Part shown: positions 24,788 through 27,013 of the stretch, piece by piece | How positions within the stretch are numbered: the stretch's first letter is position 1 | Layout: the number at the start of each line of letters is the position of its first letter | Source of the DNA: Patescibacteria group bacterium | GTDB taxonomy: Bacteria; Patescibacteriota; Minisyncoccia; Moranbacterales; GWC2-37-73 | Assembly (NCBI GenBank): GCA_022709565.1 | Contig: JAKLIO010000001.1 | Location: forward strand, 4,368-68,367 | Reading direction: 5' to 3' | Length of the DNA: 64,000 bases | Position numbers and translations under genes: made by a program | The notes under the pieces: model-generated | What the model was told of the DNA's origin: nothing | What the model saw: only the letters and a program-made list of their open reading frames with translations | Databases searched by the model: none

Positions 24788-27013
24788 ATGCTAAGTCTTA
24801 AAACAAAATTATCCGACATCCCGCGCATTGGCCCGAAATATGCCGCTGCTCTCAAGAAGCTCAACATGGAAACTGTCGAGGATTTTTTGCTGCACTTCCC
24901 TTTCCGCTATGAAGATTACTCCGAGCGAGTTGCAATCGACAATCTTGCGGCCGGGCAAACTGCCACTGTCATGGGCGAAGTCACCAAAAGCAAACTGATC
25001 CGAACTTGGAAGAAAAAAATGCTCATCACGGAATGTTTTGTGCAAGATGACACCGGCACAGTACGTGCCGTGTGGTTCAACCAGCCCTATGTTAGCGATT
25101 CATTAACGGAAGGCAAAGGCGTGCGCCTCAGCGGTAAAGTTTCCGAAGACGCCAAGGGCTTGTTTTTTTCCAATCCGGCCTGGGAACTTTCTTCAAGAAT
25201 TCCAACCAACACCGGCCGGCTGGTTCCGATCTATCCGGAAACTGAAGGCCTGACTTCGAAATGGATCCGCTGGCAACTGCAAAATTTGATAAAATTTGCG
25301 GATGAGCTTCAAGATCCGATTCCGGAAAATATTCTCAAAGGTTTGCATCTACCTTCCCTGTCTGAGGCTATAAAATATATTCATTTTCCTAAAAATGCCA
25401 AGCAAGCCGAAATCGCGCAAAAGCGTTTCGCCTTCCAACAGATGTTTCTGCTTCAACTTGCATCTCAGCGCGCCAAAATTTCTTGGGAAAGACAGCAGAG
25501 CGTCACGATTCCTTTTGATGAAAAATTAATGCAGAAATTTGTTGCCGCCCTTCCATTTTCTCTCACCAACGCGCAAAGAAAGGCCGCTTTTCAAATTTTG
25601 AAAGATCTGGAAAAACCAAGACCGATGAACCGGCTGCTCAATGGTGACGTCGGCAGCGGCAAAACCGTGGTAGCCGCCATGGCCGCCTTGTCAGTTATAA
25701 ACTCCGGCTATCAAGTGGCTATTATGGCACCGACTGAAGTTTTAGCGCGGCAACACTACCTGACACTTTCAGCACTTCTAAAAAATCGCGATATAAACAT
25801 AGCGCTATTAACCAATTCATATAAAGAAATAAATAATTTCCAATTTCCAATTTCCAATTTCCAAACAAATCCCAATTTTCAAAATTCAAAATTAAAAATT
25901 CAATCAAAATTCAAAATTAGAAATTCAAAATTAGGAGATCAGATTTCCCGCGACGAATTAATTTCTCAAATTAAATTCGGTGCTATTAATCTTGTCATCG
26001 GTACTCACGCGCTTATCCAAAAAGGTGTTAAATTCAAAAATCTGGCCTTGGTTGTTATTGATGAACAACACAGATTCGGCGTCGATCAGCGCGCCTATTT
26101 GCAACAACCCGCCTCGACTCGCGGAAATGACCGCTCATCGACGCGAGGCGGGCAAATTTCTGAAATAAATGACGGCTTGCCGGAAAAAACACCGCATTTG
26201 CTATCAATGTCGGCAACTCCCATTCCCCGCACTTTGGCGATGGCTTTTTTTGGCAATCTTGATCTTTCTGTTTTGGATGAAATGCCCAAAAATCGCAAAA
26301 CAATCAAAACCAAGATTATCACCGCGGCCGAGCGCCAGAAAACCTATGATTTTGTGCGCAGTGAAATCAAAAACGGCCGCCAGGTTTTCATTATCTTTCC
26401 TCTCGTTGAAGAATCGCAAAAAATGTCAGAACTTAAAGCGGCCACCGAAGAACACGCCAGACTTTCCAAAAATGTATTTCCCGATTTGAAACTGGCGCTT
26501 TTGCACGGAAGACTTAAATCAAATGAAAAAGAAAAAATCATGCAAGATTTTAATGACAAAAAGTATGATATTTTGGTTTCCACTTCCGTTGTCGAAGTCG
26601 GCATCGACATTCCCAACGCTTCAATTATGATCATCGAAGACGCCGATCGTTTCGGACTTTCGCAGCTGCATCAATTTCGCGGCCGAGTCGGACGCGCCGA
26701 ACATCAATCCTATTGTTTCCTTTTCGCCAAAAGTTCCGCCCTCAGCAAAAGCCGCCTCAAAGCTATGGAAAAATATGCCAGCGGTTTTGATATCGCCGAA
26801 GAAGATTTCAAACTGCGCGGTCCCGGCGAGTTTTTCGGCACCCGCCAATCCGGCCTGCCGGACATCGCCATGCAACATGTCACTAACGTAAAACTCATTG
26901 AAATAGCCAGTGACTATGCCGAAGAGACTCTGAAAGAAAATCCTTCTTTGAAAAAATATCCCCTTTTGCAAAAAGAATTGGAAAAATTCCAAAAAAACGT
27001 TCACCTTGAGTAA
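24788..27013 (+). CDS. recG: ATP-dependent DNA helicase RecG (with two in-frame insertions)
   Basis: Has a wedge-domain N-terminus, the helicase motifs GDVGSGKT, VIDEQHRFGV, SATPIPRTLA and QLHQFRGRVGR, and the C-terminal RGPGEFFGTRQSG. Confidence 0.92.
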   Translation: MLSLKTKLSDIPRIGPKYAAALKKLNMETVEDFLLHFPFRYEDYSERVAIDNLAAGQTATVMGEVTKSKLIRTWKKKMLITECFVQDDTGTVRAVWFNQPYVSDSLTEGKGVRLSGKVSEDAKGLFFSNPAWELSSRIPTNTGRLVPIYPETEGLTSKWIRWQLQNLIKFADELQDPIPENILKGLHLPSLSEAIKYIHFPKNAKQAEIAQKRFAFQQMFLLQLASQRAKISWERQQSVTIPFDEKLMQKFVAALPFSLTNAQRKAAFQILKDLEKPRPMNRLLNGDVGSGKTVVAAMAALSVINSGYQVAIMAPTEVLARQHYLTLSALLKNRDINIALLTNSYKEINNFQFPISNFQTNPNFQNSKLKIQSKFKIRNSKLGDQISRDELISQIKFGAINLVIGTHALIQKGVKFKNLALVVIDEQHRFGVDQRAYLQQPASTRGNDRSSTRGGQISEINDGLPEKTPHLLSMSATPIPRTLAMAFFGNLDLSVLDEMPKNRKTIKTKIITAAERQKTYDFVRSEIKNGRQVFIIFPLVEESQKMSELKAATEEHARLSKNVFPDLKLALLHGRLKSNEKEKIMQDFNDKKYDILVSTSVVEVGIDIPNASIMIIEDADRFGLSQLHQFRGRVGRAEHQSYCFLFAKSSALSKSRLKAMEKYASGFDIAEEDFKLRGPGEFFGTRQSGLPDIAMQHVTNVKLIEIASDYAEETLKENPSLKKYPLLQKELEKFQKNVHLE
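25833..25934 (+). repeat. low-complexity TTTCCAA/TTCAAAA element inserted in frame in recG
   Basis: Encodes ..NNFQFPISNFQTNPNFQNSKLKIQSKFKIRNSKL... About 47 nt align at roughly 85% identity with the coding strand of the U32 gene insert (42762-42822). Confidence 0.7.
26098..26156 (+). repeat. GC-rich hairpin inserted in frame in recG between helicase motifs II and III
   Basis: CCCGCCTCG (26108-26116) pairs with CGAGGCGGG (26144-26152), with an inner GCGG/CCGC helix. It encodes ..PASTRGNDRSSTRGGQ... Confidence 0.6.

Follow-up and report, generated by a model that had tools for sequence, protein, structure and literature searches.

Why should two unrelated conserved genes share the same AT-rich stretch of DNA, read in the same frame, when relatives of that stretch also lie between genes? 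The question arose in a 64-kb stretch of contig JAKLIO010000001.1 (hereafter the window; 38% G+C), where the shared sequence lies in recG and in a gene for a U32-family peptidase-like protein. Protein searches assigned both products to Candidatus Moranbacteria, a lineage of the candidate phyla radiation (CPR; Patescibacteria). An initial annotation, made from the sequence alone, described a low-complexity element of about 47 nt; the repeat is real, but 47 nt is merely the left part of a unit of about 118 nt. With a probability of roughly 0.7, we interpret this unit as a dispersed, probably mobile palindromic repeat family whose arrays change by 7-nt slippage and whose genic copies are those left by selection against frame disruption, being translated as disordered loops that the host protein tolerates. 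The host genes and the four copies in the window are as follows.

24788-27013, plus strand: recG, an open reading frame (ORF) of 741 aa that carries two in-frame inserts.
25833-25934, plus strand: near full-length copy of the element in recG, with the in-frame peptide NFQFPISNFQTNPNFQNSKLKIQSKFKIRNSKL.
25835-25864, plus strand: left arm of the recG copy, a perfect (AATTTCC) x 4.3 array (Tandem Repeats Finder, period 7, 100% match).
25862-25876, plus strand: non-periodic core of the recG copy, CAAACAAATCCCAAT, with a 4-nt phase shift in the heptamer register.
25878-25932, plus strand: right arm of the recG copy, a degenerate (TTCAAAA/AAAATTC)n array (Tandem Repeats Finder, period 7 and period 25) that pairs imperfectly with the left arm.
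42120-43451, minus strand: gene of the U32-family peptidase-like protein, an ORF of 443 aa with one in-frame half-copy.
42765-42819, minus strand: half-copy in the U32 gene (arm, core and apex-proximal segment, about 55 nt), with the in-frame peptide QFSISNFQTNHNDKISKQ.
27052-27157, plus strand: full-length intergenic copy between the recG stop codon and the phosphomannomutase start, located with a profile hidden Markov model (HMM); fold -20 kcal/mol.
55739-55845, plus strand: full-length intergenic copy between infC and rpmI, located with the same HMM; fold -18.3 kcal/mol, z = -2.2.

RecG orthologues are annotated as RecG and contain the RecG_wedge, DEAD and Helicase_C domains, the window protein matches Thermotoga maritima RecG (1GM5) with E 4e-143, and U32 orthologues contain PF01136 and PF16325. 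The resemblance between the two stretches is real and well above chance. Positions 25841-25887 of recG (plus strand), CAATTTCCAATTTCCAATTTCCAAACAAATCCCAATTTTCAAAATTC, and 42815-42769 of the U32 gene (minus strand), CAATTTTCAATTTCCAATTTTCAAACAAATCACAATGATAAAATTTC, are identical at 40 of 47 positions, close to the 85% first estimated by eye, and at 46 of 56 when extended without gaps, compared with 15.7 +/- 3.7 identities for every other 56-mer that the window contains; the two intergenic loci come next in similarity. Exact copies of the non-periodic core CAAACAAATCNCAAT number two in the window, at 25862-25876 in recG and 42780-42794 in the U32 gene, whereas about 0.0013 occurrences are expected from base composition. 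This shared core, written more fully as CAAACAAATC[C/A]CAAT, lies outside the tandem part, and both copies are read in the same frame, giving ISNFQTNPN in RecG and ISNFQTNHN in the U32 protein, as originally proposed.

We then searched the window with a profile HMM made from 26 full-length intergenic copies of other genomes, with no window sequence included. Significant matches were confined to the four loci: 27052-27157 (HMM positions 2-114, E 1.5e-12), 25835-25926 in recG (positions 2-98 of 118, E 8e-12), 55739-55843 (E 7e-10 on the plus and 4e-9 on the minus strand, since this copy is palindromic) and 42819-42765 in the U32 gene (positions 4-58, E 5e-9). Because a model from outside this genome matches both intergenic loci, the relatives that had been suspected at 27046-27165 and 55741-55846 are genuine. 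Together with the 56-mer background, these E values place the similarity far beyond what AT-rich low-complexity sequence gives by chance. The recG copy, covering about 102 nt of the full element, is a rare near-complete genic copy, and the U32 copy is a typical half-copy.

Alignment of the 26 intergenic copies defined the full element as an imperfect hairpin, or palindrome, of about 118 nt that contains no ORF. Its consensus reads, in order, AAATTTTCAATTTCCAATTTTCAATTTTCAATCAAATCCCAATTTTTAAATTTTCAATTT and GTTTGAAAATTGAATCATTGAAAATTCATTGAAAATTGATAATTGAAAATTGAAAATT; the arms are tandem heptamers, AATTTYC and GAAAATT, arranged around an asymmetric, non-repetitive core, CAA[A/T]CAAATCCCAAT, and the terminal inverted repeats are AATTTTC...GAAAATT. 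The recG stretch follows this layout, with (AATTTCC) x 4.3, the phase shift that makes the core and then (AAAATTC)n, and a recG orthologue (L008) has the same right arm. Both intergenic window copies fold as full hairpins. The recG copy folds at -30.2 kcal/mol (z = -4.5) on the antisense strand and at -10.6 kcal/mol in the mRNA sense; folding of the U32 half-copy gave no hairpin. The consensus contains stop codons in all six frames, so the explanation first offered for the orientation of genic copies, that the opposite sense would create stops, was right in substance. Every sense-frame stop lies at or past the apex, so that none of the three sense frames is interrupted within the left arm. Of the six frames of the window recG copy, a single one is free of stops, and it is the frame used by recG.

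To establish the distribution of the family, we searched one genome per species for the exact 28-nt pattern AATTTYCAATTTYCAANNAAATCMCAAT. The search yielded at least 81 genome loci, holding 85 copies, often several per genome. Nearly all came from the CPR, under labels that cover many phylum-level groups and more than ten lineages (Moran-, Staskawicz-, Gribaldo-, Nealson-, Uhr-, Levy-, Kaiser-, Yanofsky-, Blackburn- and Absconditabacteria, among others), and metagenomes of the Joint Genome Institute (JGI) held at least 118 further loci with the exact 28-mer. An HMM census counted 110 copies in 584 kb of sampled loci, compared with four in the 64-kb window, and mean identity was 84% between copies within a genome and 76% between genomes. 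Some metagenome-assembled genomes (MAGs) labelled Gammaproteobacteria, Bdellovibrionales, Francisellaceae or Methylomirabilis, 'binchicken' MAGs included, carry CPR-type genes, and these labels are probably wrong; CAZFCX01 (L022 / L093), labelled Bdellovibrionales, encodes a Moranbacteria-type U32 protein (P0126) that is 81% identical to that of the window. An assembly artefact was rejected because the same in-frame inserts recur across independent assemblies and samples. A phage vector was also ruled out, since 2.9 million viral contigs contained no match to the 28-mer or to a 23-mer from the right arm. Rfam returned no family at gathering thresholds for the element in the window or at E <= 0.1 in four loci, only weak plant-miRNA-like chance matches. 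The initial annotation knew of no equivalent in this kind of genome, and we found no description of the element in the open-access literature, even with literal strings such as AATTTTCAATTTTC and NFQFPISNFQ, and the heptamer-armed family is apparently previously undescribed.

Most copies occupy short spacers between co-directional genes. About one third are instead part of protein-coding sequence, inserted in frame in housekeeping genes. Pfam confirmed as hosts UvrC, TsaD, LigA, GatB, Mfd, SecA, MnmA, a Mur ligase, an NAD(P)H-hydrate dehydratase (Nnr-type) and MetRS, and LeuRS, IleRS, UvrD, MiaA, RNase HII, LepA and a glycosyltransferase were added by eye; the 28-mer is present in more than 30 unrelated genes, plus 23S rRNA genes. 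In TsaD the element occupies one loop but is read in two different frames, and in RecG of another genome it lies at a second site. Other repeats accompany it in some hosts: UvrC of UBA12142 (L010) contains several different in-frame repeat-derived inserts (VIPNSFQDL...MLKQVQHD, CHPALDAGS...DSRLRGNDK and TKYQIP heptads), and one TsaD (L012) contains several in-frame inserts with nested GC hairpins.

The genic copies are strongly biased in orientation. In the genome set, long sense ORFs accounted for 33 copies and antisense ORFs for 4, with 48 lying outside; the corresponding counts in an independent metagenome set were 27, 3 and 53; approximately 85-90% of genic copies are sense. By frame, the sense copies divide 20/8/5 in the genomes (with 4 antisense) and 19/8/0 in the metagenomes (with 3 antisense). 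The commonest frame (39 of 60 sense copies) yields the most polar peptide, I(S/F)NFQxNPN, and is used by both window copies; the frame shared by recG and the U32 gene is therefore the prevailing one, but not obligatory. Similarly, the claim that only one sense occurs inside ORFs holds in the window, whereas elsewhere a stop-free variant is also found antisense: the antisense genic copies belong to the AATTTCC subtype, whose complement, (GGAAATT)n, lacks stops and reads GNWKLEIGN.

Genic copies are also truncated. In the 584-kb census, 57 of 75 non-ORF copies were full length and 12 consisted of the left arm only, whereas the 29 sense ORF copies included 2 of full length and 23 with the left arm only; 18 of these sense copies end at model positions 52-59, the apex, and a further six copies were in antisense ORFs. 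The prevalence of left arms in genes is attributable to the stop codons of the right arm. Intergenic full copies showed no comparable bias relative to flanking genes (15 in the same and 11 in the opposite orientation), which argues that the genic bias is selective and does not stem from the insertion process. A strand-specific RNA role found no support either, as intergenic copies lack an orientation bias to transcription. The combined filter on frame, orientation and truncation suggests that genic copies are translated rather than removed.

Comparison with orthologues clarified the history of the two sites. The RecG segment from LLTNSY to VIGTHAL spans 38-41 residues in the shortest Moranbacteria orthologues, 74 in the window and up to 88 elsewhere. 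Compared with T. maritima RecG, the insert accounts for 38 extra residues (343-388 of the query correspond to 453-460 of the 1GM5 chain), matching the length first estimated; over the shortest Moranbacteria orthologues the gain is about 33-36. In the U32 protein, the stretch that follows CTQPCRW is 37 to 96 residues long across orthologues and 66 in the window, and the closest orthologue (L092) shares the insert at 73 of 78 positions. The alignments thus revealed hypervariable insertions, missing from some orthologues, and not ancestral segments of ordinary length.

Elements of the same family occupy the same recG codon in relatives of about 60-75% identity (L001, L008, P0010, P0017, P0053, P0083 and P0100), while the closest relatives (88% amino-acid, 90% nucleotide identity) carry other arrays at that codon, an AATTTAA array in L003 and a CCAGTAA/CCAGTTACGAG hairpin in L007; the orthologue in L005 has nothing there. 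This pattern marks the recG site as a hot spot. Neither the recG nor the U32 insertion is recent, as family elements lie at the same codon in orthologues down to about 60-70% identity. The recG flanks of the window and L001 agree at 75% of positions (51% at third codon positions), whereas arm and core match at 42 of 44 positions; considered with the different arrays of the 90%-identical L003 and L007, this indicates that the similarity of elements does not track the phylogeny of the host. Such decoupling would result from replacement on repeated occasions, from gene conversion by other copies or from constraint at the nucleotide level; neutral vertical descent would not produce it.

The initial annotation had suggested modelling whether the inserts fall in surface loops. 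In an AlphaFold2 model of RecG based on 45 aligned sequences, residues 351-384 (the element) and 441-455 (the second insert) are coil with a predicted local distance difference test (pLDDT) score below 50, compared with 85-89 for the flanks, which places both recG inserts in predicted disordered loops. The model of the U32 protein, for which the PDB holds no relative at E <= 1e-10, is weaker; its insert falls within a low-confidence coil at 212-235. The second recG insert is unrelated to the element:

26108-26152, plus strand: second in-frame insert of recG, a 45-nt GC-rich hairpin, CCCGCCTCG...CGAGGCGGG, with a perfect stem, encoding PASTRGNDRSSTRGG.

This hairpin, unique in the window, is without counterpart in 119 of 119 other orthologues, including the 88% identical ones, and offers the window's cleanest contrast of a filled with an empty site, showing small hairpins to enter ORFs without loss of frame. 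The same loop holds a PF13366 (PDDEXK_3) domain of about 150 aa in approximately seven of the RecG orthologues listed, among them P0019, P0106, P0117 and P0120. GC mini-hairpins are also nested in AT-rich elements elsewhere (L036, L056 and L089; P0100, P0199, P0200 and P0212).

Outside the window, family members also occur in 23S rRNA genes, as the tips of long inserted helices that resemble intervening sequences (IVSs). One 23S rRNA gene of a Gribaldobacteria genome (L039) carries three copies, 95% identical, at different positions, each capping a composite hairpin of -76 to -96 kcal/mol in which a GC-rich basal stem bears the AT-rich element on top. This gene (1164-5708, minus strand) is 4.5 kb long and contains two group I introns in addition to the three near-identical composite hairpins. 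Further copies lie in 23S genes of L023, L054 and L057. CPR rRNAs are known to contain many short, uncharacterised, ORF-less insertions, suggested to be RNase III-type IVSs (Tsurumaki et al. 2024, PMC11270868); that study describes neither this element nor copies in protein-coding genes.

How might such a distribution arise? Under the mobile-repeat interpretation, copies would be made by a copy-and-paste or recombinational process with a preference for tolerant hot spots and for heptamer tracts or hairpins already in place, which would lead to nested insertions and turnover. Mobility or turnover is indicated by the three 95% identical copies within one 23S rRNA gene of L039 and the further 23S copies, by the mismatch between element and flank similarity at recG, by the GC mini-hairpins nested in elements and by the greater identity of copies within a genome than between genomes. 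Arrays would then lengthen or shorten by slippage in 7-nt steps. Within genes, selection would retain frame-preserving, stop-free versions, in the sense orientation and usually with the left arm only, most of them in the frame that gives the polar I(S/F)NFQxNPN peptide; the retained copies would form disordered surface loops tolerated by the host protein. The analysis itself shows family membership, anatomy, distribution, the biases of frame, orientation and truncation, the position in low-confidence loops and the decoupling from host-gene phylogeny. Mobility is probable, and we infer that the inserts are translated and close to neutral for the host protein. Intergenic hairpins may plausibly act in transcript 3'-end formation or RNase III processing.

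Several observations weigh against this interpretation. No transposase was found, and no arm pair encloses 250-3000 nt, as a cargo-bearing form would, in the window, the RecG/U32 orthologue loci or the 81 genome loci. The flanks of the 26 aligned full copies show no consistent target-site duplication, with AT-rich ends blurring the boundaries, and no empty-versus-filled polymorphism of the AT-rich element was seen between near-identical strains. Related genomes have stably retained the copies they share by descent (L021/L029/L064 and L017/L060), which implies that present activity, if any, is low. At the U32 site, two short orthologues (L091 and L093) that might have represented an empty site instead carry an (AAACGTC)n array, and diversity may therefore arise partly in place, by slippage or unit replacement. 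In addition, choosing loci by an exact pattern inflates the apparent conservation, local alignment is partly responsible for how sharply copies end at the apex, and the U32 structure says little alone because the Cys-rich 30 residues ahead of the insert are also modelled with low confidence.

A broader version of the mobile-repeat interpretation is more tentative, and we would put it somewhat below even odds. It holds that a single heptamer-armed palindromic family, spread by a shared mechanism across many CPR lineages and possibly related to PF05635 cassettes, is a major source of both the disordered inserts of CPR housekeeping proteins and the expansion or IVS hairpins of their rRNAs, its nucleotide-level conservation reflecting recognition by a machinery or an RNA-hairpin function.

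Among the alternatives, the one that survives best, although still unlikely, is a conserved functional signal in RNA or DNA, for instance a hairpin for transcript ends or RNase III processing or a site bound by a protein, preserved by constraint rather than mobility, with genic copies as by-products or internal regulatory sites. Nucleotide conservation across genomes labelled as distant CPR lineages is indeed very high, above that of the host gene; among the 28 full-length intergenic copies for which both flanks are known, 26 sit between co-directional genes; a stop codon often immediately precedes such copies, and short GC hairpins often bracket them; and the 23S helix-tip copies resemble IVSs excised by RNase III, similar short rRNA insertions in CPR being on record (PMC11270868). 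A signal of this kind, however, leaves unexplained the lineage-specific presence in dozens of unrelated ORFs, the three copies in one 23S gene and the nested insertions; moreover, the element matches no Rfam family and has no G+C-rich stem and U-tract of its own. The two readings are compatible, and a functional signal does not exclude a mobile repeat. An intrinsic terminator specifically was ruled out, since the element is an AT-rich hairpin without those features and, in some copies elsewhere, short GC hairpins lie only in the flanks.

Less probable still is independent microsatellite growth in place, in which a genome prone to 7-nt slippage would have produced convergent AATTTYC arrays with no common descent. 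The window is rich in period-7 tandem arrays, with 10 perfect ones (at least 2.5 copies) of many units, nearly all in spacers, as opposed to one of period 6 and none of periods 8-12. Units at orthologous sites differ (AATTTAA, GAATTTC, AAACGTC and CCAGTAA), as does copy number among orthologues. Slippage nevertheless accounts for changes in length and not for a common architecture: the non-periodic core recurs with the same 4-nt phase shift far more often than base composition predicts, apex-proximal and right-arm sequences are also common to the copies, a profile from other phyla recognises the window copies with E 1e-9 to 1e-12, and one 28-mer recurs in dozens of unrelated genes and in 23S rRNA genes.

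Removal of genic copies at the RNA level, in the manner of rRNA IVSs, or skipping by the ribosome would keep the insert out of the protein altogether. The family does sit in 23S rRNA genes, where such hairpins are usually excised, and the recG copy is a near-complete palindrome. We nonetheless regard this possibility as very improbable, as it predicts no selection on frame or stops, whereas genic copies are predominantly sense, are mostly without the stop-bearing right arm and never interrupt the host frame. Furthermore, the recG hairpin is strong only on the antisense strand, the fold in the mRNA sense being weak, and RNase III cleavage without ligation would destroy the mRNA. Finally, the idea that the segments are ancestral, functionally required linkers of RecG and the U32 protein is effectively refuted by the orthologue alignments: although family elements lie at the same codon in many Moranbacteria orthologues, the segments are missing or replaced in close relatives, missing from T. 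maritima RecG and predicted to be disordered, and the same sequence occurs in unrelated proteins and non-coding DNA, conserved at the nucleotide and not the amino-acid level.

With these alternatives weighed, the mobile-repeat interpretation can be set beside known repeat systems. The closest precedent, and the one named in the initial annotation, is the Rickettsia palindromic elements (RPEs). As summarised in PMC10969869 from Ogata et al. 2000, RPEs are palindromic repeats of about 100-150 bp with many dispersed copies and no transposase of their own; the same source places them in frame in unrelated housekeeping genes as well as in non-coding DNA, with the peptide positioned compatibly with the fold. 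The element resembles RPEs so described in being a multicopy palindrome of about 118 nt with in-frame genic and non-coding copies and a RecG insert in a predicted loop, and the analogy appears well founded for an in-frame palindromic repeat in unrelated genes and between genes. The likeness drawn here is one of behaviour, and the hosts are CPR bacteria, not Rickettsia. Unlike RPEs, the element has slippage-variable heptanucleotide arrays as arms, consists mostly of half-elements (left arm only) in genes, and belongs to a family that spans many phylum-level labels and extends to 23S rRNA genes.

[quoted passage not shown] No target-site duplication could be defined for the element, whose AT-rich ends blur the boundaries, and its genic fraction (about one third) is far above the typical. 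No cognate insertion sequence (IS) with the same ends, as expected for a MITE, was present in the sampled loci (the window, the RecG/U32 orthologue loci and the 81 genome loci), and no parent IS or REP-associated tyrosine transposase (RAYT) was identified in this limited sample of the window and 8-kb loci. REP palindromes are, moreover, GC-rich, whereas the element is AT-rich with a 7-nt internal periodicity. Copies of the family at 23S helix tips (L039, L023, L054 and L057) are extended AT-rich hairpins like 23S IVSs; the recG and U32 copies, in contrast, lie in protein-coding genes and are evidently kept in frame.

Cyanobacteria reportedly contain heptanucleotide repeats, the short tandemly repeated repetitive (STRR) sequences of Elhai et al. 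2008, with small dispersed repeats nested in them. TAACTGA heptamer repeats occur in Beggiatoaceae (PMC4679880). Both systems share with the element a genome-wide excess of 7-nt arrays, mostly intergenic, and small hairpins nested in arrays; they differ in consisting mainly of direct arrays, without a single conserved palindrome with a defined core, in belonging to unrelated lineages, and in that systematic in-frame occupation of housekeeping genes is not among their described features. The literature on IVSs is likewise not known to report insertions in protein-coding genes. By behaviour, the element would best be placed in an RPE-like class, and we claim no membership in the RPE, MITE/REPIN, IVS or STRR families. 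A TIGR (tandem interspaced guide RNA) array is built from tandemly arranged units of about 36 nt that contain edge and loop repeats as well as variable spacers, and adjoins a Nop-domain gene for the TIGR-associated (Tas) protein (PMC12045711). This candidate was ruled out by the 7-nt period, the single dispersed copies and the absence of variable spacers; no Nop-domain or Tas protein appeared among the few ORFs scanned or in the Pfam annotation of orthologous-locus neighbours, not all window neighbours having been scanned.

RPEs are the main precedent for selfish DNA surviving translated inside essential genes, and the element would extend that lifestyle to the CPR, an unrelated and very large radiation of reduced-genome bacteria. 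New relative to RPEs are the heptamer-array arms, the predominance of half-copies in genes, the many CPR lineages involved and the occupation of both proteins and rRNA. The element offers a searchable cause for many unexplained low-complexity insertions in CPR proteins and short insertions in CPR rRNA, and annotators and phylogeneticists would do well to treat such segments as something other than homologous protein sequence. It also constitutes a natural experiment on which loops of RecG, TsaD, SecA, the aminoacyl-tRNA synthetases and other proteins tolerate 20-35 extra residues. If found, the spreading mechanism would represent a new small-element mobility system in organisms with few classical transposons.

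Other heptamer arrays and cassettes of the window were recorded alongside. Period-7 arrays include TTTAGAC at 28968, GTATTTC at 30044 and 38492, TAATGAC at 34265, ATTTGTC at 34686 and CTAAAAG at 56124. The last, (CTAAAAG) x 4.4 at 56124-56154, is found immediately upstream of where rplT starts, in an operon (infC-rpmI-rplT) that also holds the full element between infC and rpmI. Two genes for PF05635 '23S rRNA intervening sequence protein', at 28582-28944 (plus strand) and 34320-34715 (minus strand), are bracketed by inverted heptamer arrays, AAAGTCT.../...TTTAGAC and AATGAC.../...GTCATT, over the spans 28537-28995 and 34262-34716. The PF05635 orthologue of L003 has (AAACGTC)/(GACGTTT) arrays on both sides and that of L001 on the left flank only; the AAACGTC unit of the L003 flanks is also the one found in frame in the U32 genes of L091 and L093. 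Heptamer-armed hairpins may thus be linked to IVS-like PF05635 cassettes.

A repeat of about 200 nt occurs twice (30087-30289 and 38540-38741; 97% identity over the first 105 nt) and has no Rfam match; each copy is preceded by a GTATTTC/GTATCTA heptamer array, and the copies lie upstream of the minus-strand genes trpS and ORF 37551-38486. The tmRNA gene (54581-54987; Rfam, 136 bits) overlaps two spurious ORFs and is directly followed by an AT-rich, 7-nt-periodic hairpin at 54993-55103, a weak relative of the element (HMM E 0.05). Spacers at 43532-43595, 45642-45716, 45876-45953 and 11688-11720 contain GC-clamped hairpin repeats, CCCCGTTAAAT...ATTTAACTGGGG, which look like terminators.

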